A DNA stretch of 32,311 bases, taken from IMG/VR virus record IMGVR_UViG_3300032260_000014, positions 1-32,311 of that record, one strand, 5' to 3'. Position numbers and translations under genes: made by a program. Of this stretch, positions 1,132-28,833 are shown one piece after another (the stretch's first letter is position 1; every line of letters begins with the position of its first letter). The notes under the pieces are model-generated. The model was not told where the DNA came from and searched no databases. It saw only the letters and a program-made list of their open reading frames with translations. Origin of the DNA: a virus. Its lineage: Duplodnaviria > Caudoviricetes.

Positions 1132-1147
1132 TAATTCACTATCTTTA
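1117..1147 (+). promoter_or_regulatory. Putative Bacteroidota-type promoter (TTTG-N19-TATCTTTA)
   Basis: TTTG at 1117-1120 and TATCTTTA at 1140-1147, with a 19-bp spacer and one mismatch to TAnnTTTG. It would place the transcript start just before the RNA element at 1155. Confidence 0.55.
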
Positions 1148-1154
1148 CAAGACT

Positions 1155-1240
1155 TTCATGGGGGACAGGCTTTATAACCCTTCTTAAATTCCTCACAATT
1201 TAGGATTACCCCTTGAATTTAAATCGGTGAGGCAATTTAA
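1155..1240 (+). ncRNA. Structured leader RNA element, copy 1 (multi-stem junction plus loop-downstream pairing)
   Basis: TTCATGGGG (1155-1163) pairs with CCCCTTGAA (1209-1217). CTTAAATT (1183-1190) pairs with AATTTAGG (1197-1204) around the loop CCTCAC, which is complementary to GTGAGG (1227-1232). The same layout occurs at 28246-28330. Confidence 0.7.
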
Positions 1241-1249
1241 ATTTACAAA

Positions 1250-2236
1250 ATGAATCATTTACAAATTTATTCAGACATTATAAATAATGCTTTAAGTAAA
1301 AATAGAAAAAAATTAAAAAGAGATGATGAAAACTATATTTACTATGAACGTCACCACATTCTACCCAAGTGTTTAGATGGTGGAAATGAAAAAGAAAATT
1401 TAGTTTTGCTTACTGGAAAAGAACATTTTGTTTGCCATAAACTCTTAGTAGAAATTTTCCCTAAAGAAAGAGGATTGATTTGTGCTTATTTTTTAATGTG
1501 CACCACAAACAATATTGATAGACGAGATTATAAGATTAGTTCAAGAGAATATGAAAGGGTAAAAAAAATAGTTTCAGAAAATCATTCAGAATTTATGTTA
1601 GGTGAGAATAACCCTATATATGGGAAGATTGGAGAATTAGCTCCTATGGCTGGGAAAACCCATTCTAAAGAGTCAAAAAAGAAAATTGGCGAAGCTCAAA
1701 AAGGTAAAAAACAAAAAATTGTAAAGTGTATTTATTGTGGTTTTGAAGGTGGAATTAGAAATATGAAAAGATATCACTTCGATAATTGCCTTGAAAATCC
1801 TCAAAGCGATAAAGAAGAAATCTTAAAAAAAAGAAGGGAGGAAAATTCAATGCTTATTGGCAAAAAACAAAAACTAACTATTTGTTCTTGGTGTGGATTT
1901 ACAGGTGGAGATAAAAATATGATTCGTTATCATTTTAATAATTGCCTACAAAACCCATCTTTATCTGAAAAAGATAAAGAAAAAATTATGCAAAATCGTA
2001 AAGACATAAAGGTAAAAACAGTAACTTGTATTTATTGTGATGTAATTATGGACGCTGGAAATGCTAAGAAATTTCATTTCGACAATTGTTTACAAAATCC
2101 AAAAAATAATAAAGAGGAAATTGAAAAAAGTAGAAAACAAAAAATCGTAAAATGTTTATATTGCAATAAAACTGGTGGTGCAGCAAACATGAAGCGTTAT
2201 CACTTCGACAACTGTAAATTCAAAAAAATAATATGA
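1250..2236 (+). CDS. Free-standing HNH homing endonuclease (T4 Mob-like) with a NUMOD3 motif and four C2HC zinc-finger repeats
   Basis: YYERHHILPKCLDGGNEKENLVLLTGKEHFVCHKLL (HNH), PMAGKTHSKESKKKIGEAQKG (NUMOD3-like), and four C-x2-C-x12-H-x3-C repeats ending HFDNC/HFNNC. Confidence 0.85.
   Translation: MNHLQIYSDIINNALSKNRKKLKRDDENYIYYERHHILPKCLDGGNEKENLVLLTGKEHFVCHKLLVEIFPKERGLICAYFLMCTTNNIDRRDYKISSREYERVKKIVSENHSEFMLGENNPIYGKIGELAPMAGKTHSKESKKKIGEAQKGKKQKIVKCIYCGFEGGIRNMKRYHFDNCLENPQSDKEEILKKRREENSMLIGKKQKLTICSWCGFTGGDKNMIRYHFNNCLQNPSLSEKDKEKIMQNRKDIKVKTVTCIYCDVIMDAGNAKKFHFDNCLQNPKNNKEEIEKSRKQKIVKCLYCNKTGGAANMKRYHFDNCKFKKII
1727..2215 (+). repeat. Four intragenic tandem zinc-finger repeats
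   Basis: First Cys codons at 1727, 1883, 2027 and 2153: CIYCGFEGGIRNMKRYHFDNC, CSWCGFTGGDKNMIRYHFNNC, CIYCDVIMDAGNAKKFHFDNC, CLYCNKTGGAANMKRYHFDNC. Confidence 0.9.
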
Positions 2237-3423
2237 TAGAACTCAAAAACGTAGTATCCCTATTTGATGGAACATCGGGAGGTCAAATGGCTTTAAATGG
2301 CAGCAACATTAAATATGAGAATTATTATGCTTCTGAAAATGATAAATACGCAATACAAGCAACAAAAGCTATTTACCCCAACACTACTCAATTAGGTTGC
2401 GTTATTAAATTAAGAAGATATCTAGAAAAGCCTGAATTGTATGAAAGAATGTTAGAAAGTTCTTTTGTAAAACAAGAAAATAAGAAATTGATTTATCATT
2501 GTATAGATTTATTATTAGATGGTGTTGATTTGTTGATGGGTGGAAGTCCCTGTCAAGGATTCTCATTTGCAGGGAAACAATTAAATTTTAGTGATCCAAG
2601 AAGTAAATTGTTTTTTGAGTTTGTTAAAATTAAAGAAATCTTAAAACCTAAATATTTTCTGCTTGAGAATGTAAAAATGAAAAAAGAGTATCAGGATGTT
2701 ATTTCTGAATATATGAGGGTCGATCTTATAGAGATAAATTCTGCTTTAGTGAGTGCTCAAAACCGCAAAAGACTTTATTGGACCAATATTGAAGGAATTG
2801 AACAACCAGAAGATATGGGTATTTTACTGAAAGATATAATTGAAACCAATTCAAATAAAATTGGACGTATGGTTGGTAGAAAATTAAATCCTGAGACTGG
2901 GAAAAGAGATGATTATAATAAAGATATAAAAACAATTCAAAGAATTGAGTCACGTTTCGATAATAAAAGTGGAGCATTAACAACTGTTCAAAAAGATAAT
3001 TTAGTAATAGAGAATGAATTTGTTGATCGTGAAAAAAGTTATTGCATAGATGCAAACTATTTTAAGAAAAAAAGAAGACAGCTTGTATTTTCACATGGCA
3101 TAGAAAAAGGACGCAGACTTTTTGATGGCAAAAACCTTTCACGAAATTATAGAGAAGGTTCAAGAGTTTATTCTTTTGAAGGTAAGGCTGCTACATTAAC
3201 AAGTCAGAGTAAAGGTGGTTCTGGTGGTTATAGTGGACTTTATGGAGACAAAGTTTATTATAGAAAACTAACTCCTCGTGAATGTGGTAGACTACAGACA
3301 GTACCAGAAGAAATAATAGATATAATGTTGTCTTGTGGAATATCAAATTCTCAACTTTATAAAATGCTTGGTAATGGATTCACCATCTCTGTAATATCTC
3401 ATATATTTTCATATTTAAAATAA
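2233..3423 (+). CDS. DNA (cytosine-5)-methyltransferase
   Basis: Motif I SLFDGTSGG, motif IV GGSPCQGFS, motif VI LENV, motif VIII QNRKRLYW, motif IX RKLTPRECGRLQ, motif X YKMLGNG. Confidence 0.95.
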   Translation: MIELKNVVSLFDGTSGGQMALNGSNIKYENYYASENDKYAIQATKAIYPNTTQLGCVIKLRRYLEKPELYERMLESSFVKQENKKLIYHCIDLLLDGVDLLMGGSPCQGFSFAGKQLNFSDPRSKLFFEFVKIKEILKPKYFLLENVKMKKEYQDVISEYMRVDLIEINSALVSAQNRKRLYWTNIEGIEQPEDMGILLKDIIETNSNKIGRMVGRKLNPETGKRDDYNKDIKTIQRIESRFDNKSGALTTVQKDNLVIENEFVDREKSYCIDANYFKKKRRQLVFSHGIEKGRRLFDGKNLSRNYREGSRVYSFEGKAATLTSQSKGGSGGYSGLYGDKVYYRKLTPRECGRLQTVPEEIIDIMLSCGISNSQLYKMLGNGFTISVISHIFSYLK

Positions 3424-3471
3424 AAATATTATATTGTCACATTATTAATTAATCGTATAACTAAATCGTAA

Positions 3472-9987: not shown

Positions 9988-12900
9988 ATGAATAAACTAC
10001 AACAATATCTTTCAGACAATTTAATAGATTTTAAGGTTGAATCTAATTCAATAGTCAACATAAATGATTTAGGGTTATTCTTATTTATAGAACCTAAAAA
10101 CGATATCATTATATTGCCTTCTTTTGAATTGAATTTATCTGAAGAGGAAAAAAATATTGATGTTGATTTTTATTGTTTCCAGTTTGGTGAAAATTTCTAT
10201 TATACCGAAAGTAATAATGATTTAACATTAAAGCCATTAAAATATTTAAATAAATACGTAAATGATTTTGATTTAAGTATACCATTTCTTGGCTTGCATG
10301 GGGGATATGAATTATTGAATGGATCAAGAAGCTATAATGATTGGATTCAGAAAGCAAAATTTTTGAATATCAACACATTAGCTATCTGTGAAAAAAACAC
10401 ATTAGCTGGTACTCTTAAATTCCAAATGGCTTGTAAGTCTAATAATATTAAATCTATTATTGGCGAACAAGTAGCTGTAAAAGATGGTGAGAATTTATTT
10501 CAATTCAAGTGTTATGTGAAAAATAAAGAGGGGTGGGAGAATTTATTGGCAATCAATAAAGAAATTACAGTAACTAATCATGGATTTATCGACAGTAGTG
10601 TATTTTTAAGGCTTGTAGGTGGATTATTTATTGTAATTGACACAAAGTACTCATCATATTCTAAAATGTTGCCATATGATCTAAATATATCTGAATTATT
10701 CTATCAAATAGATACTGTTGAATTTTCTAATAATGAAAAAGATAAAGAGTATCTTCTTAACTTAAAAAATTTCATAAATCAAACTAAAATAAAACCTCTT
10801 TTTATAAGTGATGCATATTATTTAGATAAAGAGGATTTTAGAGTAAAAAAGATATTAAATGCTGTAAGTAATATTAGAGATTATGGAAGTAAGAATCAAT
10901 ACTTTAAAACAGTTGAAGAAAACTTTGCATTATTATCAGTATTGTTTGATGATGAAAATAAATGCTTTGATTTATTTGAAAAATCTATAATTAATTTAAA
11001 TGATTTAGCAGGTAGGTGTGATTTTGAAATAGAAACAGGTGTTAAATATCTTCCTAAATATATAATGACTGAAGAAGAAAAGAAAACACACAAAACAAAA
11101 GACAATATGTTTTGGTCATTAGTGCAAGAAGGTATAGATGCTAAATTACCGAAAGAAGGTGATTTGCAAAAATATGAAGAAAGAATAATTGAAGAACATG
11201 AAGTAATTCAATTAGTAATTTCTGAAGCTGGTGATGGCATTGATTATTTTTTAATTTCATGGGATATTATTAGATTTTGTCATGAAAATGATATATTGGT
11301 TGGACTATCCAGAGGTTCGAGTGCTGGAAGCCTGTTGGCGTATTTGCTAAATATCACAAAAATAAACCCCTTTGATTATGATTTATTATTTAGTAGATTT
11401 TTAAATGTAGGAAGGGTTAAAAAGGGTGCTCTCCCAGATTTTGACATTGATTTTCAGACACTTAGAAGAAGTGAAGTAAAAAAATACATAGAGCAAAAGT
11501 ATGGTGTAGATAATGTTTGTTCAGTAGGTACTTATACAACTCTCCAATTAAGAGCAGCTTTAAAAGATATTGCCAGACAAAGAAATGTAGAATTTGGTAC
11601 TGTTAATTATATAAGTCAAGCACTGGAGGTTAGTAGTGGAGATTGGGAAGATATTTTTAAAACAGCTTTTGCTAAAAAACAAGTGAAAGATTTTATATTA
11701 AATTATCCAGATGTTGTTGATGATATTCAATTAATATTAAAGCAACCTAAAAGTAATTCTATTCATGCTTGTGCAACTATTATTGTGCCAGATGGTAGAG
11801 ATATTTTTCAATCCTTTCCTGTGAGATTAGGTGAAAAAGATGGTGAAACAATGGTTGTTAGTGAATGGGAAGGTAATGAACTTGAAGCAGCTGGTTTTTT
11901 AAAAGAAGATATTTTAGGCGTTCTACAACTTGATAAGTATAAATTCATTATTGATTTAATAAAAGAAATTACAGGTGAGGTAATTGATATTTATAGCATT
12001 CCTCTAAAAGAAGAAGGTGTTTATGAATTATTTAAAAAGGGATACAATGGAGATATATTTCAATTAGGAACAGTTGGAATGACCAATTATTGTAAGGATA
12101 TGAAGCCTGAAAACATATATGAGTTAATTGATGCTATTTCTTTGTATCGACCTGGAGCAATGGATGTAAATGCCCATAATGAATATGTGTTAAGAAAATT
12201 TGGAGAAAGAGAAGTTACTTTTCATTGGGGTACTGAAAATATCCTAAAACACACCTATGGGTTAATTATATATCAAGAACAAGTTATGCAAATAGTTCAA
12301 GAATTAGCTGACTTTGATGAAGTTACGTCTGATGATATCAGAAGATGTGTTTATCCAGATTCATTATTATGGACTAATAATGGTTATGAAAAGATAAAAA
12401 ATTTAAGCAATAAAGATAATGTCTTAACATATTCTGATATAGAAATAAAAAATAAAACAAATAAAGTAAGAAAATTTTTTAATAGTGGAAGTAAGAGATG
12501 TATTCGTTTAGTTTTTGATGGAGGTAGGGAAATTATTTGCACTGAAGACCATAGATTTTATACAAATAAAGGTTGGATTGAGGCTCAGTATTTAATAAAT
12601 AATGAATTGTATTGTTTACATGAATTACAAGAGAAGTATGGTAATTGTGATGTAAGTATGGATAAATTATATCTTACTATAGCTTTAATTACAGAAGGCT
12701 ACTTTATGAAAGAAGTAACCTTCTCAAATAAAGATGTTGATGAAATTAATAAATTTAAGAAGGCTTATAGAAACTATTTTAAAAAAGAAGTTAAGTATGA
12801 ATATATAGATAAAAATAATGTAACTGCTCTTCATTTAGATATTGATATAGTTGAAGAATTAGAGCTAAATAAAGTTAAATCAGTAGATCAAGTTTTACCT

Positions 12901-14595
12901 GATTATTTTTTACAATTAAACAAAGAAGGTTGGTTGTTTTCATTGGCTAAATTAATAGATTTTGATGGGTACGTAGATAAAGAAGGAAGAGTATATTATT
13001 GCTCTAAATCTAAAAAGTTGATAGATCAAATTCATTTAATGTTTGAGTGTTTAGGGGTTAAAGCAAATATAGTTACTAGATATAAAGAAAAATATTTATG
13101 TAATTATTATGAAGTTTATATTGGAGATTCAAGAGATTTACCTATAGTTCATGAAAAATTAAAAAAGTATAGTTATAAATTGCAAAACTTTAAAGGAGAG
13201 ATTAATAACGGCAAAAATTATACAAAATATATGATTCCTTTTGATATATGGAATCCAATTATAGAAAAATTGATCAATAATAGTGGATATAAAAGGAATG
13301 AGTTAATAAAAGTTTCTGGAAGATATTTTAATAAAAATATCTCTATAGATAAATTATCTAATATTTTAACTATAGTTGGTAGAAGTAAATTGTTAGAATT
13401 TTTTATTAAAAAGAATGTTTTTTGGGAAAAGGTTGTTGATATACAGGACTATGGAGTATCTGAAGTTTATGATTTCACTATGAATTCAGGATGTGTTCCT
13501 CAAGCATATGTGAATGGATTACTTGTTCATAATTCAATGGGTAAGAAAAAGAAAGATGTTATTGATAAATATAAAGAGCAATTTATATTTAAAGTAGTTG
13601 AAAAAGGTTGTCCAGAAGCTGAAGCAGAAATCATTTGGCATGAATTAGAAGTGCATTCAGGATATAGTTTTAATAAGTCCCACGCAGCGTCTTACGCTAT
13701 TACAGGATACATTGGGCAATGGTTTAAATATCATTATCCATTACAATTCTGGACTTCAGCATTTCAATTTGATACTCCTAATCCGAAAAAAAGCAATATA
13801 GGTAGGTTTATTAGTGAAATTCATAGAACTGATAACTTTATAAAAATACAACCACCAGATATAAATGAAAGTGGTGAAGGTTTTATGTCAAATCCTGATA
13901 AGATGGAAATCTATTGGTCAATTAGTAAAGTAAAGCAAGTTGGTGAAAAGGCTCTAGAAGTTATAATAGATGAACGAACTAATAAAGGAGAGTTTTTTAG
14001 TTTAGAAGATTTTCTTAGTAGAATTGACAAGCGTGTAGTCAATAAAGCAGTTGTTATTAATTTGATTTTGTCGGGTAGTTTTGATGAATTAGAGAATATC
14101 AATCATGTTGGTGATAGGAAAATACTTATTAATAAATATTATGAGTTTACAGGAGCTAAAAGAGAGAAAGATGATGTTTATTTAATTAATCATGAAAATT
14201 ATTGGTGGCAAATTAAACAAAAAGAATTAAGTGGTTTTGGTGATATTGATTATATTACATTTTTAAAAGACAAAACTGAATTTAGTCCTAAAAAATATAT
14301 TAGTGGATTTGATTTACCCGAAACAAAAGAAGATAGTAATGTTTTGATTGCAGGATTAATAAAAAGATTTGTTGTAAGGGTTACTAAAAAGAATGATGAA
14401 TTTTGTCGGGTAACTCTTGACAATAACAATGAAGAAATTGATATTGTTATTTGGAATGAAACCTATCAAGGATTAAACTCAGAAAGTTTTGAGGTTGGTA
14501 AGATTTTAACATTAGAAGGTAAGGTGGTGAAAGATAATTATAAAGGTGGAAATGTTATACATTCTTTTGAAAAAACTAAAGTTATTTTTATTTAA
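9988..14595 (+). CDS. dnaE: DNA polymerase III alpha subunit (family C) with intein
   Basis: PHP domain (LHGGYELLNG, SDAYY), SRGSSAGSLLAYLL, catalytic PDFDIDF, KEDILG, YSFNKSHA and a C-terminal OB fold. Confidence 0.97.
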   Translation: MNKLQQYLSDNLIDFKVESNSIVNINDLGLFLFIEPKNDIIILPSFELNLSEEEKNIDVDFYCFQFGENFYYTESNNDLTLKPLKYLNKYVNDFDLSIPFLGLHGGYELLNGSRSYNDWIQKAKFLNINTLAICEKNTLAGTLKFQMACKSNNIKSIIGEQVAVKDGENLFQFKCYVKNKEGWENLLAINKEITVTNHGFIDSSVFLRLVGGLFIVIDTKYSSYSKMLPYDLNISELFYQIDTVEFSNNEKDKEYLLNLKNFINQTKIKPLFISDAYYLDKEDFRVKKILNAVSNIRDYGSKNQYFKTVEENFALLSVLFDDENKCFDLFEKSIINLNDLAGRCDFEIETGVKYLPKYIMTEEEKKTHKTKDNMFWSLVQEGIDAKLPKEGDLQKYEERIIEEHEVIQLVISEAGDGIDYFLISWDIIRFCHENDILVGLSRGSSAGSLLAYLLNITKINPFDYDLLFSRFLNVGRVKKGALPDFDIDFQTLRRSEVKKYIEQKYGVDNVCSVGTYTTLQLRAALKDIARQRNVEFGTVNYISQALEVSSGDWEDIFKTAFAKKQVKDFILNYPDVVDDIQLILKQPKSNSIHACATIIVPDGRDIFQSFPVRLGEKDGETMVVSEWEGNELEAAGFLKEDILGVLQLDKYKFIIDLIKEITGEVIDIYSIPLKEEGVYELFKKGYNGDIFQLGTVGMTNYCKDMKPENIYELIDAISLYRPGAMDVNAHNEYVLRKFGEREVTFHWGTENILKHTYGLIIYQEQVMQIVQELADFDEVTSDDIRRCVYPDSLLWTNNGYEKIKNLSNKDNVLTYSDIEIKNKTNKVRKFFNSGSKRCIRLVFDGGREIICTEDHRFYTNKGWIEAQYLINNELYCLHELQEKYGNCDVSMDKLYLTIALITEGYFMKEVTFSNKDVDEINKFKKAYRNYFKKEVKYEYIDKNNVTALHLDIDIVEELELNKVKSVDQVLPDYFLQLNKEGWLFSLAKLIDFDGYVDKEGRVYYCSKSKKLIDQIHLMFECLGVKANIVTRYKEKYLCNYYEVYIGDSRDLPIVHEKLKKYSYKLQNFKGEINNGKNYTKYMIPFDIWNPIIEKLINNSGYKRNELIKVSGRYFNKNISIDKLSNILTIVGRSKLLEFFIKKNVFWEKVVDIQDYGVSEVYDFTMNSGCVPQAYVNGLLVHNSMGKKKKDVIDKYKEQFIFKVVEKGCPEAEAEIIWHELEVHSGYSFNKSHAASYAITGYIGQWFKYHYPLQFWTSAFQFDTPNPKKSNIGRFISEIHRTDNFIKIQPPDINESGEGFMSNPDKMEIYWSISKVKQVGEKALEVIIDERTNKGEFFSLEDFLSRIDKRVVNKAVVINLILSGSFDELENINHVGDRKILINKYYEFTGAKREKDDVYLINHENYWWQIKQKELSGFGDIDYITFLKDKTEFSPKKYISGFDLPETKEDSNVLIAGLIKRFVVRVTKKNDEFCRVTLDNNNEEIDIVIWNETYQGLNSESFEVGKILTLEGKVVKDNYKGGNVIHSFEKTKVIFI
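12346..13533 (+). mobile_element. Intein (396 aa) with LAGLIDADG homing endonuclease in DnaE
   Basis: It splits the conserved IRR|SMGKKK motif, starts CVYPDS and ends LLVHN before Ser+1. Block B is CTEDHRF; LAGLIDADG-like motifs are TIALITEG and LAKLIDFDG. Confidence 0.93.
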
Positions 14596-21093: not shown

Positions 21094-21333
21094 ATGGCAA
21101 AACCAATATTTATAATAGGAGTCCCTGAGCTTTTAGAAGCAGAATATATAGAGAAGCTAAATAAGGATATAGTATCTAAAATGAAAGATTACCACGTTTT
21201 TGTATATATCGACCAAACCTTAAAAGAGTTTAAATTCCAAGCTTTTTATGAAAAGGATTTCGATGAAGTTAAATTTGAAGAATTAAAGCAAATAATAAAA
21301 GATTCAGTTAGTAATGGCGATAACCAAGAATAA
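21094..21333 (+). CDS. Hypothetical protein
   Basis: 79-aa ORF in the operon. Confidence 0.65.
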   Translation: MAKPIFIIGVPELLEAEYIEKLNKDIVSKMKDYHVFVYIDQTLKEFKFQAFYEKDFDEVKFEELKQIIKDSVSNGDNQE

Positions 21334-21811
21334 TTTAATTTGTAAAATCTACAATAATCAAAAGGTTAATTCCAAAAGGAGAAAACATCCTCCACCTAAT
21401 TATAGTAGGGTGGAATTAAGAGATTGGTTATTTAGTCAACAATTGTTTCATGAACTGTATAATAACTGGAAGAATAATAACTATATTAGCGATTTAAAAC
21501 CTTCTCTTGATAGGAAAAATAGTTATTTATCCTATACCTTGAAAAATATTCAACTCATGACGTGGGGTGAGAATAACCGTAAAGGTAACATAGATAGGAA
21601 AATTGGTATAAATAATAAAAACTCTAAAGCTGTATGTCAGTTTGACAAAGAAGGGATTTTTATCAAAGATTTCTTTTCTCAAAGTGAAGCATCTAGACAA
21701 ACAGGAATTAATAAAACAGGAATATCTTCAGTTTGTAGAGGTAAGGGTAAAGCAGCTGGAGGTTATATTTGGAAATTTAAACAAAATATAAAATTATGTG
21801 GTGGAAATTAA
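21314..21811 (+). CDS. His-Me finger (HNH-like) endonuclease with C-terminal NUMOD1 DNA-binding domain
   Basis: PSLDRKNS...YTLKNIQLMTWGEN and AVCQFDKEGIFIKDFFSQSEASRQTGI...AGGYIWKF. Confidence 0.8.
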   Translation: MAITKNNLICKIYNNQKVNSKRRKHPPPNYSRVELRDWLFSQQLFHELYNNWKNNNYISDLKPSLDRKNSYLSYTLKNIQLMTWGENNRKGNIDRKIGINNKNSKAVCQFDKEGIFIKDFFSQSEASRQTGINKTGISSVCRGKGKAAGGYIWKFKQNIKLCGGN

Positions 21812-28199: not shown

Positions 28200-28245
28200 T
28201 CAAATAGAATTTTTAAAATTAAAATTTTTTATTAATTTAGTCGCA

Positions 28246-28330
28246 CTTCTAGGAGGACAGGGTCTGATCACCTTTTGTCTTGGCTCTCACACAAGCAATT
28301 ACTCCTAAAGGTTTTAATCGGTGAGAGTAA
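28246..28330 (+). ncRNA. Structured leader RNA element, copy 2
   Basis: CTTCTAGGAG (28246-28255) pairs with CTCCTAAAGG (28302-28311). An AGGGT/ACCTT hairpin follows. TTG(T)CTTG pairs with CAAGCAA, and its loop segment CTCTCAC (28284-28290) is complementary to GTGAGAG (28321-28327). Confidence 0.7.
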
Positions 28331-28344
28331 TTAAAACAACTACA

Positions 28345-28833
28345 ATGAACAAAGAAAAAAAAGAAGGCATATCTAATAGAGGAAACAGAAAAAACCCTTC
28401 AAATAAAGCTAAAATTATGAAATACAGTGAAGGTAAGGGTCTTGATAATTATAGATTTAATTATAATATCAGTATCAATCAATATGCTGTGTTGAAAAAT
28501 AATTGGGAATTAGATTATATAGATATCGCTGTTTTTTTATCTATCTATACTTTTATAAGTTCTGGCAAGGCTGATTCATATAGAATGATAGATGCTAATA
28601 GTATTTCATGGTATTTTGTTTCAGAAAATAAAATAATAAAAGATTTACCATTAATTCCAATAAACAGTTCTACTGCTATTACAAAAAGAATAACTAATTT
28701 ATGTAAATATAATTTGTTGGTTAGGAATCCAGATAATAGGGTAAATAGTAAAAAACATATTAGAATTGGAAGTGGAGCTAAAAAATATTTTTACAATTAT
28801 GGTAATAGTCAGGAAAGTCCTGATATCACTTAG
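28345..28833 (+). CDS. Winged-helix DNA-binding protein resembling the N-terminal domain of phage replication initiators
   Basis: YNISINQYAV...LDYIDIAVF...WYFVSENKIIKDLPLI...AITKRITNLCKYNLL matches my recollection of such domains. ATG 28345 is preferred over GTG 28321, which lies inside the RNA element. Confidence 0.55.
   Translation: MNKEKKEGISNRGNRKNPSNKAKIMKYSEGKGLDNYRFNYNISINQYAVLKNNWELDYIDIAVFLSIYTFISSGKADSYRMIDANSISWYFVSENKIIKDLPLIPINSSTAITKRITNLCKYNLLVRNPDNRVNSKKHIRIGSGAKKYFYNYGNSQESPDIT

Follow-up and report, generated by a model that had tools for sequence, protein, structure and literature searches.

Two intergenic islands of this phage fragment share one layout although their stems differ in sequence, which raises the question of whether they are copies of a single structured RNA and, if so, what such an RNA does for the genes that follow it. 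The window, meaning the whole stretch of 32,311 nucleotides analysed, is a phage fragment of 28.7% GC and carries genes for a terminase, a helicase, a DnaE with an intein, RecA, SbcCD-like proteins, UvrD and RNase H, all on the plus strand; a search of the whole window for tRNA and tmRNA gave no match. Shine-Dalgarno (SD)-like words are found upstream of 1 of the 41 window genes. A is the commonest base at positions -3, -6, -12 and -13 of the start regions, and boxes resembling TAnnTTTG lie in several intergenic gaps. TAnnTTTG is the -7 promoter element of Bacteroidota, and a preference for A at the start-region positions other than -3 is likewise a trait of this phylum. A at -3 and the lack of SD sequences are described as Bacteroidota start-region traits in the available text of PMC6847099. 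Together, the scarcity of SD words, the A-rich starts and the TAnnTTTG-like boxes suggest a Bacteroidota host for the phage.

The two copies are found at 1155-1232 and 28246-28327, both on the plus strand, and share a fold with the order P1, GAC, P2, P3, UUA and the 3' strand of P1. The junction of copy 1 occupies 1155-1217 (P1 1155-1163/1209-1217, GAC 1164-1166, P2 1167-1181, P3 1182-1205, UUA 1206-1208) and that of copy 2 occupies 28246-28311 (P1 28246-28255/28302-28311, GAC 28256-28258, P2 28259-28274, P3 28275-28298, UUA 28299-28301). P2 abuts P3 directly, and the unpaired junction bases are GAC before P2, none between P2 and P3, and UUA after P3. The P1 stems that the earlier note had drawn are present in both copies, with a single mismatch apiece, U.U in the first and C.A in the second, and P2 of copy 2 has a G.U at its second pair. 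The words GACAGG and ATTAC of the earlier layout are also present but are only partly junction, since AGG is the 5' arm of P2, the first A of ATTAC closes P3 and its C closes P1. The pattern GACAGG..ATTAC..AATCG has two matches in the window and none in 100 shuffles, and a covariance model with copy 2 as its only sequence recovers copy 1 at 34.8 bits (E 2.8e-6; runner-up E 0.049). The claim of two islands with a common layout is thus confirmed by the sequence, by the pattern and by the copy 2 model.

Folding of single copies gave no stability signal, with z-scores from +0.25 to -1.26. For the full leader, the nested junction (-12 to -15 kcal/mol with the pseudoknot not counted) is surpassed in stability by a long hairpin that the loop and its target form (-20 to -23 kcal/mol); the loop:target helix is common to both folds. 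The support for the proposed fold is comparative, not thermodynamic. The P2 loops of both window copies contain palindromes of 6 nt, TTATAA (within 1171-1177) and TGATCA (28265-28270). As a possible dimerisation signal, such a palindromic loop is found in two of the three sense copies known (the third is described below) and the energies are weak: the self-duplex of the window P2 loops amounts to -1.8 kcal/mol, and the third copy has 4 nt with a wobble.

The P3 loop of copy 1 carries the address CCUCAC (1191-1196), the complement of the target GUGAGG at 1227-1232, which is -23 to -18 from the AUG. In copy 2 the address is CUCUCAC (28284-28290) and the target GUGAGAG at 28321-28327, -24 to -18 from the AUG. 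Both targets begin 9 nt past P1 and end 17 nt short of the ATG, so that the downstream pairing and the spacing described earlier hold in both window copies. The pairing of copy 1 is predicted to be able to extend to 1234-1240 (-16 to -10 from the AUG) and thereby to displace P3. The copy 1 loop pairs with its own target at -9.9 kcal/mol and the copy 2 loop at -13.3 kcal/mol, compared with -7.8 kcal/mol for the best of 39 other window start regions in either case. A promoter-like box on the plus strand precedes each copy, at 1140-1147 and at 28233-28240, with one mismatch to TAnnTTTG in both cases; P1 begins 7 nt downstream of the first and 5 nt downstream of the second, which is the weaker of the two. 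These boxes are putative promoters. The earlier note had reported such a box before copy 1, where it is indeed present, but it is not peculiar to that copy.

Copy 1 leads a free-standing gene of the HNH/NUMOD3 homing-endonuclease type (1250-2236, plus strand, 328 amino acids; PHROG 655, E 1e-50; NUMOD3 domain), which is followed by a C5 DNA methylase gene (2233-3423, plus strand). Together with these two genes, the element forms an insertion of 2.3 kb (window 1132-3471) that separates terL from the helicase gene. In a related phage record, L138, the helicase gene follows terL after 13 nt, and the element, the HNH gene and the methylase gene are missing. Copy 2 has no nuclease gene downstream. 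It leads a gene (28345-28833, plus strand) for a predicted winged-helix protein of 162 amino acids that resembles the N-terminal domain of RepA-type initiators, though the Foldseek match is weak (best E 7e-3, TM 0.44-0.55).

Related records were reached through a protein unique to this phage group, and 99 kb of them were searched with a covariance model of the two copies, as the earlier note had proposed. The sole match was a third sense copy with covarying helices in the record L318 (3553-3639, 40.7 bits, E 2e-6). It has the same promoter-like box as copy 1, 6 nt upstream of P1, and GGACAG and UUAC are kept while the stem sequences differ. Every helix is retained by means of compensatory changes, as expected for the covarying three-way junction that had been suggested from the two copies. 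In an alignment fitted to the model, with just three rows, 60 of 63 cells are paired and 13 of 21 pairs are changed on both sides. The pairing of loop and target covaries as well: it reads CCUUACC:GGUAAGG in L318, which together with CCUCAC:GUGAGG and CUCUCAC:GUGAGAG amounts to two double changes across the sense copies. The sense targets are 6-7 nt long and end 17-19 nt upstream of the AUG. The known sense copies are three in number and come from two related phages. A refined sense pattern run over the viral collection gave one folded match in 104, the known third copy, and when three copies of the element were compared by blastn with isolated phages, short chance pieces alone were returned.

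The AATCG word had also been placed in the conserved layout. It is not part of the core, because it reads AATTG in the third copy, and it is instead a phage-wide motif that lies within 15 nt of the start codon in 6 of the 41 window genes (0.29 expected). Exact patterns requiring AATCG(GTGAG) gave 56 matches that were dismissed as chance, with a P1 of merely 0-2 bp, and no element in viral contigs or in GTDB genomes. The somewhat longer word AAATCG(G/T) was observed 2-8 nt upstream of 6 of the 41 window start codons (window positions 3451, 3464, 8458, 16853, 18914, 22942 and 25171) and before the helicase ATG of the relative (L138:11021). This word may be a late promoter or an initiation motif of the phage.

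The third copy leads an HNH gene (PHROG E 3e-5), for which no relative was found in GTDB, and this gene is followed by a homologue of the copy 2 gene (L318:4385-4822, 41% identity) that matches PHROG 428, a replication initiation protein, with E 1e-5. In the related record L140 a homologue of the copy 2 gene lies downstream of a broken GIY-YIG remnant. No element was found at the homologues in L137, L140 and L141, and the element is therefore not tied to the copy 2 gene. The gene order in L318, the remnant in L140 and the empty site in L138 show instead that it belongs to nuclease cassettes. The copy 2 gene is a passenger of such cassettes, and copy 2 has likely lost its own nuclease gene and now leads this passenger. 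The association with DNA-binding or nuclease genes made in the earlier note thus stands for the nuclease cassettes, but the copy 2 gene is a passenger rather than a separate kind of target. In L141 the homologue is preceded by a long AT-rich hairpin (1-97), in place of the element, and followed by a GC hairpin (665-690).

The same core was also found on the opposite strand. When the two-copy model was run on 84 loci, mostly relatives of the copy 1 HNH gene, it gave three weak hits, all directly upstream of HNH genes and on the other strand. A descriptor and pattern scan among 127 loci gave at least 17 hits with a score of at least 18, some of them duplicates. In total the core GAC / none / U(U/A/C)A was found at least 24 times in AT-rich phage contigs, mostly from one jumbo-phage clade, head-to-head with nuclease-type genes of the HNH, GIY-YIG or DUF7487 kind. 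In a MAFFT alignment of 17 distinct cores, 97.9% of the cells are paired and 14 of 20 pairs are changed on both sides, and the pairing falls to 34-53% when slid. G-GAC-AG, U and U(U/A/C)A-C are kept although the stems diverge, and the stems hold 28 G.U against 1 A.C, from which the folded strand can be identified as the GAC one. When a model was made from the 17 cores, with no window sequence in it, the two window copies ranked first and second in the 32 kb (E 5e-6 and 3e-4; next 0.089). Of 50 records searched with this model, 16 gave a total of 27 places, many being training copies; among 85 further loci it was convincing in L003 only, with nothing convincing in the other 84. The model missed the third sense copy in its whole record, G038 (E 0.001, fast filter), and negative results for whole records are consequently weak. 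Cross-scores between the sense and antisense forms are merely 14-29 bits; we infer homology rather than convergence.

For each of the 24 distinct opposite-strand elements, an ATG lies on the other strand at a distance of 28-42 nt. One of the facing reading frames runs off the contig, another is a GIY-YIG-like stub of 43 amino acids, and the remainder begin like HNH, GIY-YIG or zinc-finger/DUF7487 nuclease-type proteins. Pfam nuclease-type domains were found in 10 of the 11 facing proteins tested, the others being assigned by BLAST or by visual inspection. On the GAC strand, the downstream gene differs from one element to another. On both sides the element is flanked by an inward-facing GAATATATA-type box, and these boxes would supply a promoter to each of the two transcripts, mRNA and antisense RNA. 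G003 (L296-L315), a complete record of 405 kb of which 400 kb was read, is an AT-rich jumbo phage with T4-like gene content as judged by eye. There, a GAATATATA-type box lies within 140 nt of 61 of 387 reading frames, and 7 of 28 nuclease-like genes carry the element (six found by pattern and one variant by eye), with differing addresses. The element is dispensable, as 21 of these 28 genes do without it; several of them have just a GAATATATA-type box and a short leader.

In the opposite-strand form it is the P2 loop that complements the start region of the facing nuclease gene. This was observed in 24 of 24 elements, over 5-9 bp and mostly within -12 to -3. The address sites differ (AGAGGGA, GGAUAGA, AAGGUUAA, AUGGUUAA and AGUUUGGA) and some are not SD-like. 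SD-like words precede 5% of the reading frames in G003, and given this and their scarcity in the window, the G-rich targets are not accounted for as ordinary SD sites. The specificity of the addresses was assessed by crossing the pairs (3 of 22 rows were dropped because they lacked a reading frame of 60 amino acids, and 6 of 27 loci were left unparsed). Over 19 pairs, a loop with its own site has a mean of -9.7 kcal/mol compared with -4.4 kcal/mol for crossed pairs, and 0 of 100,000 permutations were as good as the own pairing, the 19 pairs being related and non-independent. The own site ranks first for 13 of the 19 loops and among the top four for all 19. Five elements found by model search with no selection for nucleases (L285, L289, L290, L293 and L295) all fit. 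Because the antisense loop and its site are the same sequence on one strand, they can pair solely between two RNAs. The antisense alternative mentioned in the earlier note thus appears to be realised in relatives, where the same core lies opposite the nuclease gene.

The reading that appears most likely, and that we hold with slightly better than even confidence, is that the covarying fold is a 5' mRNA leader that limits the translation of homing-endonuclease cassettes in cis, and the earlier suggestion of limited expression is supported to that extent. The fold, its strand, the covariation of loop and target and the association with genes rest on comparison, and transcription and the direction of the effect are what we infer. 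Transcription would start a few bases past the TAnnTTTG-like box, so that the RNA begins at P1. P1, P2 and P3 would then form around the invariant GAC / none / UUA junction and present the P3 loop, which by comparison would pair with its site upstream of the AUG. This pairing is predicted to extend into the 5' arm of P3 and to cover the message down to about -14 to -6. The covered bases are part of the A-rich initiation region of non-SD hosts, and less initiation would be expected. The core target of the three sense copies (-26 to -18) ends before the A-rich positions (-13 to -3) begin, so that repression would depend on this predicted extension, which gains 4.6 kcal/mol in copy 1, 0.8 in copy 2 and 2.1 in L318. 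The module may travel with nuclease genes because it helps the phage to tolerate them. For the second clade, transcription of this scaffold would be from the opposite strand, and its P2 loop would pair in trans with the nuclease mRNA at -12 to -3. RNA structures that sequester the ribosome-binding site hold down homing endonucleases in T-even phages, according to the portion of PMC2988022 available.

Several observations speak against this translational brake. A promoter placed before a standing lock lacks an explanation, and simple occlusion leaves the invariant junction bases unaccounted for. The L318 loop pairs with the copy 1 site (-11.6 kcal/mol) as well as with its own (-11.3). The sense form uses the P3 loop and the antisense form the P2 loop, and their cross-scores are low. 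A more far-reaching idea, which we regard as possible and put forward tentatively, is that homing-endonuclease cassettes use the GAC/UUA junction as a portable antisense scaffold and re-address it by co-mutation of a loop of 6-9 nt and a tag before the start. It would act through the P3 loop in cis or through the P2 loop in trans, and would provide each of several nuclease genes within a genome with an orthogonal repressor in non-SD hosts. In that case the invariant junction might itself do something, for instance recruit a host factor or cut the bound message.

Other explanations can be weighed against the same observations. The junction of 63-66 nt could be cut from the leader and act in trans on other copies of the mRNA, like the antisense RNA C4. 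Folded by itself the core is a closed unit with P1 joining its ends, only trans pairing is permitted by the geometry in the 24 relatives, and C4 itself has an adjacent P2 and P3 with a variable P3 loop that blocks translation by pairing near the ribosome-binding site (PMC12197685, in the text available). Nevertheless this is rather doubtful, because the target begins just 9 nt past P1 and cis pairing should win; moreover, the long P1 and the junction of C4 are absent, and no processing site or terminator was identified. The conservation of G-GAC-AG, U and U(U/A/C)A-C across divergent stems would suit a junction that binds a host protein, the product of the cassette or a metabolite and thereby shifts the leader between the junction with its pseudoknot and the long hairpin that displaces P3, and all three sense copies have such an alternative fold, with the loop and the 5' arm of P3 paired to the target. 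Such a gated switch is unlikely, however, given that the target is paired in either fold, that the partner proteins are unrelated, which makes a common cognate protein improbable, and that the core occurs on either strand relative to the gene; there is no metabolic gene context either. The effect could also be the reverse, with the element protecting the mRNA end or freeing the last 17 nt and so raising expression. A junction plus a pseudoknot that protects an RNA end is an xrRNA-like topology; each of the three sense copies would have P1 at the very start of its RNA, and 17-19 nt separate the end of the core target from the AUG. We consider this quite improbable, as the match in the 24 antisense relatives falls directly on the initiation region (-12 to -3 in most) of a separate molecule, a placement in keeping with blocking.

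Small ribozymes are known to occur in phage nuclease contexts, which the present context resembles, and the junction bases are invariant with the G.U almost so; the junction might then be catalytic and cleave either its own RNA or the target paired to it. This is very unlikely in view of the some 11 invariant bases, of an address loop that swaps between P2 and P3 and is hard to square with a fixed active site, and of the Rfam searches, which gave no ribozyme match at E up to 5-10. An element acting as DNA (a cruciform, an inverted-repeat unit or an invertible switch) or a guide RNA of the nuclease seems equally remote. It would agree with the inverted GAATATATA-type boxes that flank the second-clade element and with the orientation relative to the nuclease gene, which differs between the clades. 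The excess of G.U over A.C singles out one strand, though, and the GAATATATA-type boxes stand alone before many genes, as promoters would. The invertible switch was rejected, as 0 of the 24 second-clade elements are in sense orientation. Guide RNAs of the omega, reRNA or HEARO type were rejected on the grounds that the partners are HNH/NUMOD3, GIY-YIG and DUF7487 proteins and not one family, and a guide aimed outside its own gene because the match lies in the gene's own start region. The three unrelated nuclease families also leave the nuclease-bound RNA cofactor, which the earlier note had listed as a less likely option, unsupported.

The translational brake can be compared with several known systems. 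Scanned against Rfam at E up to 5, the window gave five weak unrelated matches, and a scan of 13 second-clade loci gave a terminator-like STnc40 match only, in line with the earlier statement that no known family could be assigned. The element is an Rfam-unmatched RNA family of known design, akin to int-alpA and C4 and a member of neither. Like the element, int-alpA (RF02996) is a three-way junction of about 70 nt whose P3 loop is complementary to a site just 3' of P1. Its junction reads UA / GAAAA / CU and thus differs from GAC / none / U(U/A/C)A. At its cut-off of 35.8 bits two true members scored 44.2 and 53.8 bits as controls, whereas neither the window nor any single sense copy had an int-alpA match at E up to 10, and G003, G004 and G038 had no score. 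The member with 53.8 bits (L328:1501-1566, minus strand) has a loop that pairs with 7 downstream bases and a self-complementary P2 loop, which was seen in the two int-alpA members examined and is not a curated feature. This RNA follows a tRNA cluster and leads first the GIY-YIG-type and then an initiator-like gene, the same order as in the L318 cassette.

C4 (RF01695, phages P1 and P7) is likewise a three-way junction with adjacent P2 and P3 and a variable P3 loop whose sequence complements the start region of the gene under its control, and the C4-like architecture noted earlier is borne out in topology. Unlike the element, C4 has a P1 of 17 bp that runs straight into P2, a J3/1 of 8 nt and a1b1 sites, and it controls an antirepressor operon. 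At the 45-bit cut-off, with control members at 67-84 bits, C4 gave no match on the window at E up to 10. The hairpins at the ribosome-binding sites of I-TevI, I-TevII, I-TevIII, segB and Aeh1 mobE (PMC2988022, as far as its available text goes) are like the element in that a start-site RNA structure limits homing-endonuclease translation, and like copy 1 and the L318 copy, though not copy 2, they precede a homing-endonuclease gene. The T-even structures are described there as simple hairpins over an SD site that are freed by a nested late promoter. The element differs by its conserved junction, its variable loop, an apparently non-SD host and the existence of an antisense form. The window box lies upstream of the whole element, and no nested promoter was seen in the sense leaders, where one of late type could escape notice. 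CfrI of cyanophage S-PM2 (PMC12197685, available text) is also an antisense RNA beside a homing-endonuclease gene; it is about 225 nt long, links psbA and F-CphI, and is likened here by gene context alone. A literature search, mainly of papers outside subscription, found nothing on a GAC/UUA junction family, and four words of the element were absent from three of the six supplements of PMC10690425.

In 2010 the translational control of most free-standing homing endonucleases was regarded as not obvious and experimentally unaddressed (PMC2988022, in the text available). The element offers a concrete candidate mechanism common to three nuclease families, together with natural compensatory pairs. 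What stands out is one junction that is used in both orientations with addresses free of SD sequences. As a leader in cis and, from the opposite strand, a candidate antisense RNA, the same core links the leaders of T4 type with antisense RNAs of C4 type. If it works in the way proposed, an address that varies freely and is independent of SD sites could make it a small programmable translational repressor for Bacteroidota. Its novelty is lowered by int-alpA and C4, which already share the design, int-alpA also by gene context in L328.

Some further observations concern mobile genes and structured stretches around the element. The window DnaE gene (9988-14595) has an intein with a LAGLIDADG domain, and TerL of the relative (L138:7997-11020) contains a long insertion that looks like an intein. 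A second endonuclease-like gene in the window (21314-21811, NUMOD-like, PHROG endonuclease VII) has no element upstream. Seven near-identical stretches near position 801 of L087, L088, L099, L114, L118, L120 and L122, apparently with several hairpins, were chance catches of the pattern scan; they may represent a structured RNA or part of an intron, unconnected with the element. In L002 (G007), two elements at 57-126 and 712-773 face each other across one gene of 179 amino acids, and each is head-to-head with the start of its own outward-pointing reading frame, with a different address.
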